From Candidatus Wildermuthbacteria bacterium (GTDB lineage: Bacteria > Patescibacteriota > Minisyncoccia > Minisyncoccales > UBA10102), in the NCBI GenBank assembly GCA_016181405.1, contig JACOZJ010000004.1, forward strand, positions 71,479 to 114,312: a stretch of DNA of 42,834 bases, given 5' to 3'. A program made the position numbers and the translations under genes. The notes beneath the pieces are model-generated. The model did not search any database. It saw nothing but the letters and a program-made list of their open reading frames with translations, and was not told the origin of the DNA. Below are positions 5,055 through 42,834 of the stretch, piece after piece (position 1 is the stretch's first letter; each line of letters starts with the position of its first letter).

Positions 5055-7466
5055 TCACATACACCTACTAAATCCGCATCCCTTGCAGCTAATGCATCCT
5101 TCTGCCATTACAAGCTGGGCACCGCAATCCGGGCACCCCGGCATAAATCCAAAATCCGCCATGGAAGGGTCTCCCTCTTTGGCAAAAGCAAATACTTCTT
5201 GTTTCTCTGGCCGTTCTAAAATATCCTCTATCTGCCTTACTCCCGTAACATGCTCCTCGAGCACCCTGCCGATGGCGTCGGGGAGAGAAAGCACCGTGCC
5301 TTTTTCCGTAAATATCGGCATTGGCCCCCGAATTCCCTTGAGGTCGCTGATCACTTCCTCCACACGAATGCCAGCCCTCATGGCAAGAGAAGAAAGTCTG
5401 CAGATTGCCTCTGATTGTTCCTGGAAAAACCCTCCGCTCTTTCCAATAGTAGCGAAGATCTCAAATGGCTTGCCGGCTTCGTCGTCGTTTATCGTAATAT
5501 ACAAGTTGCCGTACCCTGTTTTCATTCGATAGGTCTTACCCACCATTACTTCTGGCCGTTTCCGGGGGACAACTCCTTCCGAGATCTGCCCTTCGCCTTG
5601 GGCCGGAACACCCGTTTCTACTTTTGTAGAAGGGGCAGTTCCGGGTTTCTCGGTAGTAGAAACAATATTATCGCCATTGCCCACATTTAAAATCTGGATG
5701 CTGCGGCTTCCGTCGCGGTATACTGTTGCCGACTTGCATCCCAATTTCCAGGCAGAAATAAAACTCTCGCCAACATCCTCTTTTGTCGCAGAATGGGGAA
5801 AGTTTATTGTTTTGGAAATTGAATTATCCACATGGCGCTGGAACGCGGCCTGCATTTCCATATGCGCCCTCCCTGAAATGTCCATTGCCACCACAAAAGT
5901 CTCGCGAAGCTCTTTGGGAAGCCACTCAATACTCTGAATGCTTCCTTCTGCCATAACCTTTTCCATAATCTCTTTCTGCTGGACCTCCGTGAACTCGATT
6001 CTATCCAATGCTTCCTGGAAGTATTTGTTGAAATAGCGATACTGTTGGCCATCCTTATCCTGTTTGACATAGGCTAAGGCAAAGTTCGGCTCCACGCCAG
6101 AAGAGCAATCAAACATCATAGAAATAGAACCGGTGGGAGCAACCGTCGTTAAAGCAGCGTTGCGGCGTTTAATGCCTTGGTCAGGAAAAATACTCTTGTC
6201 CGAATTGGGAAATTCACCCTTCTCCCGAGCAAGCTCTTCGGACATTTTATGCGCCTCTTCGTTGATAAATCCCATAACCTTTTCTGCCGTATGGATTCCC
6301 TCTGCAGAGTCGTACCTGATACCCAATTGATACAGCATATCTCCAAACCCCATAATTCCAAGGCCAATTCTGCGGTTTTTTTGCGCCAGCTCCGTAACTT
6401 GAGGCACTGGAAAATCGAATTTGTCTATTACATTATCCATGAGACGCGCCGCTGTCCTAGTGACAAAGCGAAGGCGTTCCCAGTCTATTTCCTTGTTTGC
6501 CACGAATTTGGCAAGGTTAATTGAACCTAAATTGCAGTTGTCATACGCATGCAAAAACTGCTCCCCGCATGGATTGGAAACAGCTATTGGCCCCAAGCCA
6601 GGCAAGGGATTGGTCCGGTTAATAGTATCAATAAAAGCAATGCCAGGTTCGCCATTCAGCCACGCGTGTTCCACTAGTAGATCAAACAGCTCCCTCACAG
6701 TCATATCAACTTCCGCGGCATCGTACACGGTGCCGTTCGGGTGCCGGAGAACCTTGTGGGGTTTCATTTTTCTCCCGTTGAATTGGCAATACCACTGCGT
6801 ATCCGGATTCTCCACAAGCTGACGCATAAACTCATCTGTCACGGTTACGGAAATGTTAAAATTGCGAATTTCGCCTTCAACGGTTTTACACTCGATGAAA
6901 TCGAGCACGTCAGGATGATCTACCCGTATCATTGCCATATTCGCCCCATGCCTGCCCTGCTGCTTAATAGTGCCGAAGGCAGTGTCGTACACCTTTAAAA
7001 AGGTTACGGGGCCAGAAGCCCTGCCCCGCGATTTTTTCGTAGGGGAGTTTGCGGGACGCATTTCCGACAAATCAAACCCAAGCCCGCACCCTGCCTGCTG
7101 GAGAAGCGCCGCCTCCTTGAGGGTTTGAAAAATGCTTTCCATAGAATCCTCAATGCGAAGTACAATGCAGTTTGCGATAAGCGGAGTTTCTCCCCCCGCA
7201 TTAGTAAGAGTGCGTCCGGCCGGAGTGTACTCTTTGGACGCCATTATGGCAAAGAATTCTTTTGCGACCTGCTCTGCAGCCTCCTCATCTTTTCCATAGC
7301 CCCTCTCCACATCAGCCAAGGCGTTTGCCACTCTCTCGAACATATCAGCTGGCGTTTCCTGGTTCCCTTCGTCGTCTACCATCAAATAGCGTTTCTGCAT
7401 CATTTTAAGCGCATTTTCTGAAAACGTCCCGTTCGCCTTATCTTTAACCTCTTGAGGTACTCGCAT
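5055..7466 (-). CDS. nrdJ: Adenosylcobalamin-dependent (class II) ribonucleotide reductase with fused TSCPD domain and Cys-rich tail
   Basis: TPAGRTL, NCIV, GGCG-like AGCGLG, NPCGEQ, CNLGSINL, APTGSIS, AFQRHVDNSISKTIN and C-terminal CPDCG..CISCKGCG; no ATP cone evident. Confidence 0.95.
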   Translation of the reverse strand: MRVPQEVKDKANGTFSENALKMMQKRYLMVDDEGNQETPADMFERVANALADVERGYGKDEEAAEQVAKEFFAIMASKEYTPAGRTLTNAGGETPLIANCIVLRIEDSMESIFQTLKEAALLQQAGCGLGFDLSEMRPANSPTKKSRGRASGPVTFLKVYDTAFGTIKQQGRHGANMAMIRVDHPDVLDFIECKTVEGEIRNFNISVTVTDEFMRQLVENPDTQWYCQFNGRKMKPHKVLRHPNGTVYDAAEVDMTVRELFDLLVEHAWLNGEPGIAFIDTINRTNPLPGLGPIAVSNPCGEQFLHAYDNCNLGSINLAKFVANKEIDWERLRFVTRTAARLMDNVIDKFDFPVPQVTELAQKNRRIGLGIMGFGDMLYQLGIRYDSAEGIHTAEKVMGFINEEAHKMSEELAREKGEFPNSDKSIFPDQGIKRRNAALTTVAPTGSISMMFDCSSGVEPNFALAYVKQDKDGQQYRYFNKYFQEALDRIEFTEVQQKEIMEKVMAEGSIQSIEWLPKELRETFVVAMDISGRAHMEMQAAFQRHVDNSISKTINFPHSATKEDVGESFISAWKLGCKSATVYRDGSRSIQILNVGNGDNIVSTTEKPGTAPSTKVETGVPAQGEGQISEGVVPRKRPEVMVGKTYRMKTGYGNLYITINDDEAGKPFEIFATIGKSGGFFQEQSEAICRLSSLAMRAGIRVEEVISDLKGIRGPMPIFTEKGTVLSLPDAIGRVLEEHVTGVRQIEDILERPEKQEVFAFAKEGDPSMADFGFMPGCPDCGAQLVMAEGCISCKGCGFSRCM

Positions 7467-37325: not shown

Positions 37326-38345
37326 ATGGATATTTTTGGCGCACAGGTCCTTGTACTTGGATGGCTGCTTTTGATTGGCGGCGGCGTTCTGTTAGTTGTT
37401 TCCGCAACCTTGGTTTATCGACGTTCAAAACAAATCGCAGAACAGACCAAGAGAATAAATGCCCGTCTTCAGGAGCTTTTACGGGAAAGCCATGAAAGCG
37501 GGAAAATACTTGTGCGGAAAGATCGGGAATTAACTCTTGCGAACCAGACATTAGTCGAACGCACACACGATCTTGAAGAAGCGGGGAAACTGCTGGTACG
37601 GCGTGATCTGGAACTTACCCAAAGCAACGAACGGCTACGCGATTTGGACGCCATCAAATCGCAGTTTGTGTCGGTTGCGGCTCATCAACTGCGCACCCCG
37701 CTCGCCGGGATTAAGTGGACGCTCTACGCGCTTTTGGAAGAGCGTACGGGGAAGTTGAACGCAGAGCAAAAAACATTCGCCGGAGACGCGTATAAGGCAA
37801 CACTCCGCTTAATTGAACTGGTGAACGACCTGTTGGACGCTTCCCGTTTGGAAGAGGGAAGATTTGGATTCAAAACGCAAAAGCAGGATTTTCTGCCCGT
37901 GGTGCAAAGCACATATGAGAAGTTTGAGAAATCTGCCAAAGAGAAAGGAGTAACGTTTTCGTTTGTAGCGCCAAAAGAACCTCTGCCCACCCTTACGATT
38001 GATAAAGAGAAAATAACTATTGCGCTGGAAAATATGGTTGACAACGCGTTAAAATACACTCCTCCCGGCGGGCGGGTGACAATCAGGCTCTTCAAGGAGA
38101 AAAACCAAGTAATCTGTGACGTGGCAGATACCGGAATCGGAATGCCCAAAGATCAAACGTCCAAAATCTTCACGAAATTTTTCCGGGCGGAGAACGCCCA
38201 GCTTTCCCAAACAAGCGGTACGGGCCTCGGCCTATACCTGGCCAAAAATATTATTGAACATCACGGGGGCGCGATCTTCTTCACAACAAAAGAAAATCAA
38301 GGAAGCACGTTTACGTTCACGCTTCCTATCCCAGTTAAAACATGA
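37326..38345 (+). CDS. Histidine kinase (1 TM, coiled coil, HisKA, HATPase; no sensor domain)
   Basis: AAHQLRTPL H-box, NMVDNALKYT, DTGIGMP, FTKFFRA, GTGLGLYL, GSTF. Confidence 0.93.
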   Translation: MDIFGAQVLVLGWLLLIGGGVLLVVSATLVYRRSKQIAEQTKRINARLQELLRESHESGKILVRKDRELTLANQTLVERTHDLEEAGKLLVRRDLELTQSNERLRDLDAIKSQFVSVAAHQLRTPLAGIKWTLYALLEERTGKLNAEQKTFAGDAYKATLRLIELVNDLLDASRLEEGRFGFKTQKQDFLPVVQSTYEKFEKSAKEKGVTFSFVAPKEPLPTLTIDKEKITIALENMVDNALKYTPPGGRVTIRLFKEKNQVICDVADTGIGMPKDQTSKIFTKFFRAENAQLSQTSGTGLGLYLAKNIIEHHGGAIFFTTKENQGSTFTFTLPIPVKT

Positions 38346-38611
38346 AAAAAACTGTAACATTGCATCCATCAAGAATCGGCTGCCCCTCCATACCGGGGAC
38401 CATGAAAGGAATTGTTATGTCGGTTCCAGGCGTTGAGGACGTTAAGGTGAGGTACGAAGAACGTTCGCTCGATATAACGTTTGACGAAGCAAAAACTTCA
38501 GAAACCGAGATTATCAAGAAAATCGGGCAGGAAATGGGTTTGGCAATGGAAGTAGCCGAAACGCATGGGGCAAAGAAAGAAGGAAACGTGTCTGAAACCT
38601 GCCCAATGTAA
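38342..38611 (+). CDS. HMA (CopZ-like) ferredoxin-fold protein with a degenerate CxxC
   Basis: IGCPSI...VPGVEDVKVRYEERSLDITFD...IIKKIG; ATGA overlap with the kinase stop. Confidence 0.7.
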   Translation: MKKTVTLHPSRIGCPSIPGTMKGIVMSVPGVEDVKVRYEERSLDITFDEAKTSETEIIKKIGQEMGLAMEVAETHGAKKEGNVSETCPM

Positions 38612-38696
38612 TAAAATACGGTGGTCATTATACCAAAAAGTTCGGACTCATTTCCAGCAGAATCCCAAATGATGTGCCACGCGCGGAGCGCGTGGT

Positions 38697-38824
38697 GGCT
38701 CTGAACAAAATCGTACGCTGCGGACTCGGTCAGTATGGCGGAGCGAAATACGGATTCGCGGGCAAAAATTTCCTCCCCTTGAACCCCTCCATTTTTGCCC
38801 GCTCGAAATTGCAGCAATCAGAAA
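38697..38824. repeat. Left site X-core-Y (attL-like)
   Basis: Arms X (38697-38757) and Y (38803-38824) are exact reverse complements of the right-site arms; the 45-bp core 38758-38802 is an exact direct repeat of 41141-41185. Confidence 0.92.
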
Positions 38825-38829
38825 CTAAA

Positions 38830-41097
38830 TCAGAAACTAAAATTAATGTCCAAATATTTTGGAACTTTAATTTCTTTAGTCTGTGTATTAACGGATCCGT
38901 AGGGTAGATATATCAATAAATTTGGACAATATTGTTTTGTTCCAAAATTAAAACAGTAATTTCCTGTGTACTTGTAAGTAGCGTCTGGAGTTAAGTTTAA
39001 ATCAGTCTTTGTTGTGATGCTTTTAACCGGATTTTCTGTAAAAAATCTTAATTGGGTTCTACCGTAAAATGAATTACTAGTCTCAAATGCTAAATCTGCT
39101 GAATACACATAATTGTCGAGCAAGATAGGAAAATTAAATTCAGTTGCATTTTTAGAATGATCTTTAAGTAAATCACTACATTCTTTTTCATCAAACGAAC
39201 AAAGTACATACCCACCACCCTTTACCGCTACAAATCTTTCCAACTTTGATTTAGATTCAAAATCCATTCGAATATGATTATCTGTGATAATATTCGGAGT
39301 AAAATTTGAAGTTACTTTGAGTTTTAATTTAGGATCGCCCAACAAGTAGTTATAACTTTTATAATAGAAATTATCACCTTCAGGATTTTGCTTGCCAGTA
39401 GTATATAGGTTGTAAGCGTCCTCTATCCTTGAATTTAGAAACTGACCCTGTCCTACAGGCATAGTGAGTGTATTTTGAACTAACATTCTTTGTTCGCTAC
39501 CAAAGTATAATTCACTTGCCACAAAAGATATTTCTGCGCTACCCAAGAAACCAACGGCACCATTTTTAATTGCCTCGTAGCCAACAATTGGATTGCCGCG
39601 AGTGGCTTCCGGCGTGCCTGGGTTCCACGGCTCTAGAGCAGCACATCCAAAGGCAAAAATAAAAGTAGGATTATTAAACACGGGCATTTCGGCAACACCT
39701 ATATTCCCCAAAATATTTCTCCATGAGTGTCCACTATAAACGAATACAGAGGAGTCTTTTACATCGGTAATAACCGCAGTTTTATCAGTGAGGGAATTAT
39801 AATCTTTGAGATTTGGCAAATATTTTTTGGTAAAATCATTATTGAGAACTGGATCAATTTTAGCTGCGTTTTGTCGCAATACGGGATCACCACTGCTGTA
39901 CGGCGACCAAGTTACTACCTTATCTGATTTCGCAATTTTTTCATAAAAGAGAGAGCGAGCGATCAATGAGGAGGCGTCGCTTACTGAATAGCCAGTTATT
40001 GCGCCAACAGAAGCATCTGGTACATACTCATTAGAATTGTTGTAGTCAGCCCAATAGTACAAATTAACAAAGTATTGATGGTCATCATCCTGATTATAAA
40101 GAGTTCCTTGCGGGACTATATTGAACTGTAAAAATGGTAAATTGTTTTCGTTGCCAACAGAAACTAAATAGGCGGGGTGAAATCCGTTTTGGGTTGCTTG
40201 ACTGACAGATTGTTTGACAGATTCACGAGTCGGATTTTTAACATTCAAAATTACACCGTCTCTTCCTCCAGCAAGAATTGGAGCGACGAGAGAAAATCTT
40301 GGATTAGATGTTTTTGTAAGATCATCGCTTGTAGTCAAGATAAGATAGTCGGAATCTTTTTTGAGTAAATCATTCGCTTCATTTACCGTTAATGCGTGAT
40401 CAACATTTTCAGCAACTTCTATACCTATGCTTTTTGCACTCCAACTTTTTATTAAATTTCTTTCTTCGTTTTTTAACGGAGTGAAGAAAATTGGTATATT
40501 AAATCTAGCCGCGAATGATGTCGCGACAATACTAGAGGCATAATCTTCTCCATTAGAAATTACTACGAAATTTGAGGAGCTATATAGTTTAGCGTTAATA
40601 TTATCCGCTTGGAGTTTTTCACTTTTCTGATCGACGTATTGATAATTGTAGGTGTAAATTTTTTTAGGAGAATATTGCTGTATAAAAAGTTTTGGAGAAA
40701 AATCATCGAGCTTACCTTTGTTTTCCACAACTAATATCGGTGCTATTTTGGAAATGGAGCTCACCTTAAAAATTGTTTTCCAATCTACCTCGCTATTTTC
40801 AGAAGCAACACCGAGCATAAAGACAGAACCTGTATCAATGGCGGGCTTCGATTTTACCTCTTGGTTAAAAAGCGTTTTTGATCCGAAGCCCTGATTATGA
40901 TTATCCGAAGTGCTAGAAATAATGTTCTGATCAGTTTTTGTATCGTCGGTTCTAGTAAAATACAAATAAGCGTACCCGCTCCCGCCTAAAATCAAACAAA
41001 AGAACAATATCAAAACGATAAGTTTTTTGTGAGATGACCGTGGCGGTTGGGAAACAGAATACGTACTTTGTGGATTGTTTAATTCTTCTGGGATCAT
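38830..41097 (-). CDS. Membrane-anchored peptidase C25 (gingipain-like) with cell-wall-binding-2-like repeats
   Basis: N-terminal TM; VVISNGEDYASSIVATSFAARFNIPIFFT (CWB2-like); YLVSVGNENNLPF, VPDASVG, FVYSGHS (His), FAFGC (Cys), NGAVGFLG, YNYLLGDP; visibly AT-richer than its flanks. Confidence 0.75.
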   Translation of the reverse strand: MIPEELNNPQSTYSVSQPPRSSHKKLIVLILFFCLILGGSGYAYLYFTRTDDTKTDQNIISSTSDNHNQGFGSKTLFNQEVKSKPAIDTGSVFMLGVASENSEVDWKTIFKVSSISKIAPILVVENKGKLDDFSPKLFIQQYSPKKIYTYNYQYVDQKSEKLQADNINAKLYSSSNFVVISNGEDYASSIVATSFAARFNIPIFFTPLKNEERNLIKSWSAKSIGIEVAENVDHALTVNEANDLLKKDSDYLILTTSDDLTKTSNPRFSLVAPILAGGRDGVILNVKNPTRESVKQSVSQATQNGFHPAYLVSVGNENNLPFLQFNIVPQGTLYNQDDDHQYFVNLYYWADYNNSNEYVPDASVGAITGYSVSDASSLIARSLFYEKIAKSDKVVTWSPYSSGDPVLRQNAAKIDPVLNNDFTKKYLPNLKDYNSLTDKTAVITDVKDSSVFVYSGHSWRNILGNIGVAEMPVFNNPTFIFAFGCAALEPWNPGTPEATRGNPIVGYEAIKNGAVGFLGSAEISFVASELYFGSEQRMLVQNTLTMPVGQGQFLNSRIEDAYNLYTTGKQNPEGDNFYYKSYNYLLGDPKLKLKVTSNFTPNIITDNHIRMDFESKSKLERFVAVKGGGYVLCSFDEKECSDLLKDHSKNATEFNFPILLDNYVYSADLAFETSNSFYGRTQLRFFTENPVKSITTKTDLNLTPDATYKYTGNYCFNFGTKQYCPNLLIYLPYGSVNTQTKEIKVPKYLDINFSF

Positions 41098-41103
41098 ATT
41101 TGT

Positions 41104-41112
41104 ATTATAGCA
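41104..41112 (-). promoter_or_regulatory. Extended -10 promoter of the protease gene (leaderless)
   Basis: TGCTATAAT ends 6 nt before the ATG. Confidence 0.65.
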
Positions 41113-41118
41113 TTAAAT

Positions 41119-41272
41119 TTTCTGATTGCTGCAATTTCGAGCGGGCAAAAATTTCCTCCCCTTGAACCCCTCCATTTTTGCCCGCGAATCCGTATTTCGC
41201 TCCGCCATACTGACCGAGTCCGCGAGGCGGTGGGGCGGGGCGTTCGTCGAGCGTACGATTTTGTTCAGAGCC
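41119..41272. repeat. Right site rc(Y)-core-rc(X) (attR-like), with a 27-bp insert in X
   Basis: Exact blocks of 22, 45, 38 and 22 bp shared with the left site. Confidence 0.92.
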
Positions 41273-41380
41273 CCGCCAAAAGCATTCCCGCCGCTACGCG
41301 GCGGTTCGAGCCGATGTATAATGAGATTACAAATTGTCGGTGTAATGCAAAAACCCTTTATCAATTTAATCCCCGAAGCT

Positions 41381-42834
41381 ATGATCAAATATTTTATATA
41401 TTGCAGAAAATCGAGCGAGAATGAGGAACGCCAAGTTTTGAGCATTGAAGCGCAACTGACGGAGCTTCGGGAATTCGCCAAGCAACAAAATCTGTTTGTG
41501 GTAAAAGAGTTTTATGAAAGTAAAACAGCGAAAGAGCCTGGTCGCGAAGTATTTAACGAAATGCTTGGCGAAATTGAAAAAGGTTCTGCCTCGGGAATCT
41601 TAGCGTGGAATCCAGACCGTTTAGCGAGAAACTCGATTGACGGTGGCAAGGTCATATATTTTGTGGATACGCTAAAAATTGTTGCGCTAAAATTCCCGAC
41701 ATTTTGGTTTGAAGCGACACCCCAAGGAAAATTTATGTTAAGTGTCGCTTTCGGACAAGCAAAATATTACACCGACAATTTAAGAGAAAACATTTTGCGC
41801 GGTATTCGACAAAAAATACGCCGTGGTGAATTATCGGCAAAAGCCCCTCTCGGATATTTCAACGAGCCGAGATTGCGAACGATTGAGCCAGATAAAAAGA
41901 CCTTTGACAAAGTAAAAGAAGCGTTAGGGGCTTTTGCTACGGGGCAATACACGCTCACGGCAATTCAGCGCAAAATGTTTTCTCTTGGCTTGGTTGGCGC
42001 ACGGAGCGGTAAACCCCTTGTCCTCGCCTCGGTAGAGCATATTTTGAAAAATCCTTTTTATTATGGACATTTTCAGTACCGAGGCAAGGTGCATCAGGGT
42101 TCGCATAAGCCAATGATTTCAAAGAAACTTTTTGACAAAATACAGGAAGCACTTGTTGCCAATGGAAAGCCCCGCAAAAAGCGAGGAGAGAAAGGTTTGC
42201 TATACAAAGGATTCGCTGTATGCGGTGAGTGCGGCTATGCGATAACTGCTGAACGGAAGATAAAGAAAAGTGGATTGGTGTATCACTACTATCACTGCAC
42301 TTTCAAAAGCCGCACTCAAAAATGTTCACAAACTCGCTTTTTGCGGGAAGAAGAATTGTCGCGACAAGTGCAAGACATGGTTCAAAAAGTTTCTTTGCCT
42401 GATGAGTGGCGAAAAACTTGAAACTGAAAACGCCGATGTCCACCACTCATCAAACCTTTTCGTTCAAAATCTCAAAAACGATATTTCCGCCGTTTCAGCG
42501 CCTATCTCTCGCCTCACAGACGCTTACCTAAACGAAGCGCTGGAACTTGGCGAGTACTTGGAGCGCAAGAACGTGCTGACGGCGGAAAAACGGACGCTGG
42601 AAGAAAAATTGAGCGATTTTGAACGCAAAGGTAATCATTGGCTCGAACTCATGCGAAACTGGATTATTGAAGCCAACCAAGCTGGAAATCTCATTAAACA
42701 AGAAAATCTTTCGGGGATGAAAGATTTTCTTGCAGACATCGGCTCGAACCGCCGCGTAGCGGCGGGAATGCTTTTGGCGGAATTCAAAATGCCTTGGCGG
42801 GACTTGGCGAAAATACCAGTCCGAACCCGCGCCT
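41381..42834 (+). pseudogene. Large serine recombinase (resolvase + recombinase + Zn-ribbon + coiled coil) with a +1 frameshift at ~42416; runs off the window end
   Basis: YCRKSSE..RQVLSIEAQ, DRLARN, LKNPFYYG, CGECG..YYHC; TGA at 42419; coding (LETENAD..LTDAYL..GNHWLE..IGSNR) continues from 42417 to the window end. Start 41381 or 41345. Confidence 0.9.

Follow-up and report, generated by a model that had tools for sequence, protein, structure and literature searches.

How do two copies of one hairpin-forming site come to have their arms inverted and their cores in direct orientation? The question is raised by a stretch of 42,834 nucleotides (nt), here called the window, from a Candidatus Wildermuthbacteria bacterium (contig JACOZJ010000004.1, positions 71,479 to 114,312), in which two such sites enclose a gene for a peptidase-like protein next to the gene of a large serine recombinase (LSR). 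Positions 38625-42874 form one 4.25-kb LSR-encoding integrative element, inserted at the extreme 3' end of tRNA-Ala(cgc). The odd geometry is probably due to local inversion of the 21-nt loop between perfect 12-bp stems in one copy of this decaying element. The direct-loop puzzle is most likely an ordinary local event, a flipped hairpin loop, within an unusual family of elements.

Geometry of the hairpin sites

The left site (38697-38824) consists of an arm X (38697-38757), stem a, a loop, stem a' and an arm Y (38803-38824). The right site (41119-41272) reads the reverse complement of Y, or rc(Y), then a-loop-a' oriented as at the left (41141-41185), then rc(X). Stem a is GCGGGCAAAAAT (38758-38769), the loop is TTCCTCCCCTTGAACCCCTCC (38770-38790) and stem a' occupies 38791-38802; folded as single-stranded DNA, this core reaches -12 kcal/mol (z = -5.5). 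In a repeat search of the window the 45-nt core is a direct repeat of 100% identity (D1, 38758-38802 and 41141-41185), and the arms fall into three inverted repeats, I1 (50 nt), I3 (34 nt) and I5 (23 nt), each of 100% identity, which confirms the direct core and inverted arms noted in an initial annotation of this DNA. That annotation also described the arms as exact inverted copies. The 22 nt of Y and the sequence of X are indeed identical, but X is not one arm of about 60 nt: a 26-nt segment (41224-41249), absent from the left copy, splits rc(X), so that X consists of 38 + 23 nt.

Repeats as long as this core and these arms cannot be chance products; the 12-mer stem by itself occurs four times in the window, against 0.62 expected. 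The X-core-Y unit is found at a single locus of the 729-kb, 10-contig genome, and a dispersed genomic repeat is ruled out by this confinement. A second perfect inverted repeat, Z (41273-41317 and 42736-42780), begins exactly at the end of rc(X). Its copies were considered as terminal inverted repeats of an LSR-only element resembling an insertion sequence and rejected as such, since rc(Z) codes for part of the LSR and Z belongs to the inverted spare copy. The features of the element, with the left site as main copy and the right site as spare copy, are as follows.

38621-38624, no strand: attL crossover GTGG; its partner GTGG (42875-42878) lies just beyond the window end, at the tRNA-Ala(cgc) 3' end
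38625-38672, plus strand: P' arm of attP, coding the LSR tail SLYQKVRTHFQQNPK and a stop, which would be fused to the LSR open reading frame (ORF) only in the excised circle
38697-38757, plus strand: X arm of the main copy; the spare copy and the form common in the community have an additional 26-nt segment
38758-38802, plus strand: hairpin core of the main copy, with a 12-bp stem, a 21-nt C-rich loop and a 12-bp stem
38803-38824, plus strand: Y arm, where the inverted repeat reaches 22 nt into the cargo side (I3)
38830-41097, minus strand: cargo gene for a 755-aa Peptidase_C25-like protein (PF01364) with an N-terminal membrane anchor
41119-41140, plus strand: rc(Y) arm of the spare copy (I3)
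41141-41185, plus strand: hairpin core of the spare copy, its loop oriented as in the main copy and hence flipped relative to its own arms (D1)
41186-41272, plus strand: rc(X) arm of the spare copy; its 26-nt segment (41224-41249) is also present in the homologous arm of locus L140
41273-41317, plus strand: Z, an inverted spare piece of the LSR 3' end, whose minus strand reads DIGSNRRVAAGMLLA (I2)
41381-42834, plus strand: LSR gene, frameshifted at about 42405-42425 and continuing past the window end
42736-42780, plus strand: rc(Z), the original of the 45-nt stretch, within the LSR C-terminal coding sequence (I2)

Loop orientation in related elements

Loops are inverted together with their arms in all 21 other pairs among the matches listed (19 from a genome scan, L145, and G058:C29), and direct loops are confined to the window (0/21 elsewhere). 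Ten metagenome contigs contain the exact 45-nt core of the window, which takes two states among them. State P, ..cggctc^core(+)^tcgcc.. (carets mark junctions), is found in L138, both copies of L145, L142, L143 and L146, and state Q, ..ggcga^core(+)^gagccg.., in L139/L141 and L140/L144. State Q is not the reverse complement of state P, and the arms are homologous on both sides; the L140 arm matches X of the window, 26-nt segment included. The state Q loci are solitary, LSR-less remnants and carry no cargo. In the main subfamily, 65 canonical copies stand beside one that is flipped (L135) and two with palindromic arms, again among the matches listed.

When the arm is anchored by the sequence coding the LSR tail, the loop is (+) in L122, L061, L051 and L089 and (-) in L138, L043 and L064; flips have therefore been fixed several times among the relatives. 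The two copies within a pair presumably come to agree after a flip through gene conversion. In the window the inverted segment is bounded exactly by the perfect stems: the two 12-bp stems are identical throughout, and reverse complementation is limited to the 21-nt loop. The occurrence of both loop states on homologous arms favours what the initial annotation had offered as its alternative, a cassette between inverted repeats with a later micro-inversion of the hairpin loop.

Its preferred model was a different one. In that model a protease circle carrying rc(Y)-core-Y integrated, by crossover within the asymmetric loop, into a chromosomal site X-core-rc(X), so that the two sites would be true attL and attR and the cassette excisable. 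The topology of the window fits such an event exactly, the cargo enclosed by the repeats in other elements is very diverse, and across the family the repeat breaks off abruptly 22-31 nt into the cargo side. The model also predicted sites that lack cargo and have palindromic arms, and one such site lies beside an LSR (L018/L148; L117 is similar). Integration of this kind would, however, always give direct loops, whereas all of the other pairs are inverted, and both loop states are found on solitary cargo-less cores. The loop lacks the dyad symmetry typical of LSR half-sites, the L018 arms differ mid-way, so that this site is not a fresh excision product, and the LSR has its own crossover elsewhere, at the GTGG by the tRNA, about 135 nt away from the hairpin core. 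Circle integration at the core is thus very unlikely, and so is the reading of the sites as attL and attR of such an event.

Boundaries and attachment sites of the element

The window ends where its contig (C1) ends, and its last 55 nt overlap the end of contig C2 in reverse complement, a junction of the k=55 assembly graph. Exact 55-mers are shared by other contig ends as well: C1 and C2 adjoin across the LSR 3' end, C2 and C6 have a common start, and C6 and C8 a common end. When C1 and C2 are joined, the LSR ORF ends in ...SNSELWT and a stop inside the 3' end of the minus-strand tRNA-Ala(cgc), with tRNA-Pro next to it.

The crossover is placed at GTGG because the LSR/tail junctions of relatives and the left boundary of the window agree: the latter, ACGGTGG^TCATTATACCAAAAAGTTCGGACTCATTT.., codes for ELW^SLYQKVRTHFQQNPK and a stop once fused to the LSR end. 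The identity of 4 nt is in itself weak evidence, and support for the crossover comes from homologous junctions in relatives, in which the same ..TGG^ junction occurs in both integrated and spare copies. In L061 and L122 (LSR 81-82% identical) the LSR likewise runs into an antisense tRNA (..RNRLMW^T..), and upstream of their LSR, read in reverse, a conserved tail follows the same LSR end beyond the junction (..RNRLMW^SILEKVRTHFEQNPD and a stop). Homologous tails are coded by the spare copies of L122, L061, L138, L051, L089, L043, L064 and L081. Across the crossover, spare copies of relatives code for ...W^S(I/L)xxKVRTHFxQNP and a stop, and the tail motif (K/E)(V/I)RT(H/F)Fx(Q/E)N(P/S) is kept among LSRs that are just 35-50% identical.

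Judged from these reading frames, attP sits within the 3' end of the LSR gene, and integration swaps a conserved 15-aa tail for tRNA-antisense codons. The predicted C-terminus is ..ELW-SLYQKVRTHFQQNPK in the excised form and ..ELWT, ending in antisense tRNA-Ala, in the integrated form. The junctions reconstructed for the whole element are ..GAATTGTGG^TCATTATACC.. for attP and ..ATACGGTGG^ACCTAGG.. for attB. A genome of the same genus (G001) has a native ..TTTGGTGG^ACCTAGG.. (GGTGG^ACC) beside tRNA-Ala, with no LSR nearby; it agrees with the reconstructed attB, but it is flanked by a different gene and falls short of the exact empty site.

The direct repeat AAAATAC (7 nt; 38613-38619 and 42810-42816) was rejected as the element boundary, as relatives show the LSR tail up to ..ELW to be element-encoded and the crossover to lie at GTGG by the tRNA. 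At L117 (about 7337-7450) a core is followed by about 30 nt, by ..ATATGGTGG^ and by a tRNA, an arrangement resembling a remnant from which the LSR gene was lost between the hairpin and attR.

Main copy and spare copy

The alignment of the two sites shows that they are an internal inverted duplication of the element: the main copy follows attL, and the LSR gene has the spare copy on its upstream side. Read in reverse, 41113-41470 aligns with the LSR 3' end, the junction and X-core-Y, in stretches of full identity of 45 nt (Z), 23 nt, 50 nt and 34 nt, in this order; a gap separates the first two, the 26-nt indel the second and third, and the reverse-complemented loop the last two. The main copy is the sequence that follows attP in the circular form, and the spare copy is placed between the cargo and the LSR promoter. 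A gap of about 166 nt, covering crossover and tail, distinguishes this spare copy from those of L122, L061 and L138. The element is decaying: besides the frameshift in its LSR, it has lost the spare attP and tail, and 26 nt from the main copy. Readings of X-core as only a 3' trailer or a 5' leader were superseded by the model of main and spare copies.

In the proposed explanation the LSR inserted the 4.25-kb element at the tRNA-Ala(cgc) 3' end by a crossover in GTGG. Elements of the family carry, just upstream of the LSR gene, an inverted spare of the LSR 3' end, attP, arm and conserved hairpin, and main and spare copies together form a long inverted repeat around the cargo, here the C25-like peptidase gene. 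The arms are inverted because the duplication is inverted, and the 45-nt core would look direct because the 21-nt loop was inverted in one copy. The flip probably came about through a hairpin-mediated micro-inversion, either by strand switching during replication or by recombination between the stem arms, and gene conversion between the copies would not yet have homogenised the flipped loop. Recombination between the X arms, the Y arms or the stems of different copies was discarded as a route, since it cannot alter one loop relative to the other.

Sequence support in the groundwater community

Logan contigs (k=31) of four groundwater runs, X1-X4, provide an independent view of the locus. Each of the four classes of arm/loop junction is matched exactly by k=31 unitigs, whose depth is about that of the host (1x) in X2 (17.7/19.4/16.9/14.6, against 16.7-19.3 for the host) and in X4 (6.9/6.4/8.0/8.0, against 7.4-7.9). 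As this holds in two independent runs, the unusual k-mers are real, and the depths in X2 and X4 fit the assembled form. No joint of a circle or an empty site was seen in these contigs, but this is weak evidence: forms with an empty site or a circle share all k-mers with the window, so that k=31 contigs cannot reveal either.

The host flank is a single unitig that ends at 38648, and the cassette is one private unitig of 2354 nt (38795-41148) in the four runs. Summed depth is 10-30 times higher, with many variants, over 38620-38715, 38764-38805 and the LSR gene; these stretches are therefore common to many other community members. Community contigs part from the window at 38620-38625. The unoccupied tRNA site was not seen in the groundwater runs, where the host-flank unitig is unbranched at the element boundary. 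Within 38000-41150, the region over which cassette and host flank were compared, cassette depth is about half that of the flank in X1 (31.6 vs 55.9) and X3 (36.3 vs 76.7) and equal to it in X2 and X4. Strains whose element holds different cargo could account for the half depth, and so could lower coverage of sequence with low G+C.

These data also bear on a rival in which the population holds both copies in both loop states, through frequent or programmed flipping, and the assembler has traced one path, so that the direct arrangement is perhaps not the dominant molecule. The k-mers (k=55) of the assembled form would equally result from the two fully inverted states mixed 50:50, the junction classes are unequal in X1 (57/16/36/49), and the locus lies at an assembly-graph junction. 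In X2 and X4, by contrast, all four classes are near 1x, as the assembled form would most simply predict, and a concerted 50:50 mix in two separate samples is less parsimonious. A mixed population of this sort is unlikely.

Several points speak against a single flipped loop in the window. Which copy was flipped is ambiguous: comparison with L138 and L145, which have the closest LSR and the identical core, points to the LSR-side copy, and comparison with L061 and L122 to the left copy. The unequal classes of X1 indicate some heterogeneity, although their depths are compatible with more than one set of configurations, and contigs at k=31 cannot tie a loop state to a copy, for which a span of at least 36 nt is needed. 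The locus also lies at a contig end, which is a caveat on its assembly, and in a population with both loop states at both ends the direct arrangement could be a single path taken in assembly. The route of the flip is drawn from analogy, and the strong conservation of the hairpin has no explanation under it; if the recombinase acts at the core, flips might not be neutral accidents.

Recombinase and cargo genes

The LSR has the domains Resolvase (PF00239, 1.5e-19), Recombinase (PF07508, 1.8e-9) and Zn_ribbon_recom (PF13408, 1.8e-9), all above cut-offs. Its ORF is not intact: the frame is broken at about 42405-42425, with a net deficit of 14 nt relative to L138, the closest intact homologue, lost from the stretch DEWREKFLARLENEDKETRHSS. 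Community contigs of the groundwater runs contain no indel variant of the frameshift region. In locus L095 (4826-6454) about 1.4 kb of additional sequence separates residues 78 and 79 of an LSR homologue, whose gene may have received an insertion.

The cargo protein matches PF01364 with E = 9.6e-9 and 35.4 bits (cut-off 23). Its gene has a G+C content of 0.30-0.43, compared with about 0.47 in the flanks, and a homologue of the C25 peptidase was not found in any related locus examined.

The element family

At least 120 contigs contain the core, GCGGGCAAAAA-(17-29 nt, C/T-rich)-TTTTTGCCCGC; they come mostly from Patescibacteria of many lineages, and the position of the core is often at a contig end. 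A metagenome scan with the X arm plus stem pattern gave no matches, and the scan with the exact core did yield matches. Homologues of the LSR (35-84% identity) are located 180-610 nt from the same hairpin in about 21 other loci, which supports the proposal of the initial annotation that the sites are functionally tied to the adjacent recombinase and makes such a tie probable. The layout recurs with varied cargo in bacteria of the Candidate Phyla Radiation (CPR). Among the matches listed, paired copies are 1.4-7.1 kb apart; their cargo includes C5-methyltransferase/restriction-type, ATPase/helicase-like and tRNA-synthetase-like genes and many secreted or membrane proteins. The cargo-less element of L018/L148 consists of a host gene, one arm, a single core, an inverted arm and the LSR, the two arms of L018 being unlike in their middle parts.

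Cargo modules are found in both orientations relative to the LSR, as judged from distal hairpins and gene direction in L051 and L089 vs L130. In L130 the cargo and two different distal hairpins, of the gcatttcgcaaagcgaaatac and gccagtttcactggc types, are reversed relative to the LSR when compared with L051/L089. This comparison suggests that cargo inverts between the repeats. It also bears on a further reading, in which the hairpin is a polarity-setting site of recombination or synapsis for the cargo module: inverted loops would allow cargo inversion only, a flip would create direct repeats and make the cargo excisable, giving forms like L018, and the window would be an intermediate "armed for excision" in an integron-like cargo-swapping platform driven by a serine recombinase. 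Although both cargo orientations do occur, this reading is quite unlikely.

The hairpin is more conserved in the family than the recombinase itself, and its stems are invariant, not covarying. Loops of L017-L146 and of the window (38770-38790) consist of mirror-like polypyrimidine blocks (CC-TT-C5-6, a centre, C5-TT-CC) with A5/T5 flanks. Block lengths covary weakly (rho about 0.4, p 0.02-0.04, for sequences that are not independent), and a rigid, end-anchored score of mirror symmetry is uninformative for these loops, their axis being off-centre. By its sequence the loop is of a kind that can form H-DNA or a triplex.

Such conservation at the nucleotide level in many organisms, together with nearby GC hairpins that have UUCG or GNRA-like loops and with frequent tRNA neighbours, would also suit a conserved chromosomal gene for a non-coding RNA that the element targets and duplicates. 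A search of the hairpin region with Rfam covariance models gave no relevant match at E <= 1, and invariant stems are not what such a gene predicts. The conserved flanking motif is the coding sequence of the LSR tail, copies travel with LSR genes and cargo and number 0-3 per genome among the relatives, and proximity to tRNA genes is accounted for by the integration site. An RNA gene is extremely unlikely.

Core-bearing contigs are also present in metagenome-assembled genomes labelled Bdellovibrionales, Gammaproteobacteria, Bacillota, WOR-3, Thermodesulfobacteriota, Atribacterota, Omnitrophota and archaea (among L020, L024, L027, L031, L033, L045, L056 and L084-L086), through either binning contamination or a wider host range. 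The loops of L027, L048, L085 and L105 are unrelated to the others, and these are chance stem matches.

Comparison with known systems

Integrative elements and prophages with an LSR include phiC31, Bxb1, A118, TP901-1 and SPbeta (SprA), as well as SCCmec with CcrAB. The present family resembles them in that one end of the element is occupied by an LSR that has Resolvase, Recombinase and Zn-ribbon domains, and in a specific short crossover with attP adjoining or overlapping the integrase gene. It differs in its attP inside the 3' end of the LSR ORF, with a 15-aa tail swapped on integration, in its target at a tRNA 3' end, a target usual for tyrosine integrases, and in carrying, besides an internal inverted spare of the LSR end and attP, a hairpin of high conservation whose loop is C-rich. 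To our knowledge no characterised LSR element combines attP within the ORF, a tRNA target, an inverted spare attP and a conserved hairpin, and no description of this family was found in the literature searched; it is apparently a very widespread and undescribed family of LSR islands in ultra-small bacteria.

Three features of the family are unusual: the attP inside the recombinase 3' end, the inverted spare attachment site, and the hairpin that is more conserved than the recombinase. Serine integrases are important tools of genome engineering, and practical interest would attach to an enzyme change built into integration, or to control of direction that needs no separate factor. The hairpin may also form in vivo, as the flipped loop indirectly suggests.

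Integrons have in common with these elements diverse, promoter-poor cargo bounded by conserved hairpin-forming sites beside a recombinase gene. The recombinase here is of the serine type, whereas IntI of integrons is of the tyrosine type. The flanking sites are inverted here and direct in integrons, and there is one cargo module instead of an array. The stem of the hairpin is perfect, whereas attC is defined by extrahelical bases. With an LSR and a perfect stem, the window's sites do not belong with integron attC sites and cassettes.

Terminal hairpins of poxviruses and parvoviruses occur in flip and flop forms that are inverted complements of each other (PMC8956199). The likeness is one hairpin in two inverted-complement forms; the viral hairpins are ends of linear genomes made by replication, whereas the sites in the window are internal to the chromosome, with no sign of linear ends.

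Hairpin-loop flips are themselves a known phenomenon. Template-switch events at quasipalindromes occur in bacteria. Flip-flop of hairpin loops between short perfect inverted repeats is well documented in plastid genomes (e.g., PMC6824564, PMC12928735). Like these cases, the window has an inverted segment whose limits coincide with a perfect 12-bp inverted repeat, and the element family shows independent recurrence of both states on homologous flanks. The plastid cases differ from the present one, in which the hairpin belongs to the conserved functional parts of a mobile element and the flip gives two inverted copies a common direct repeat of 45 bp.

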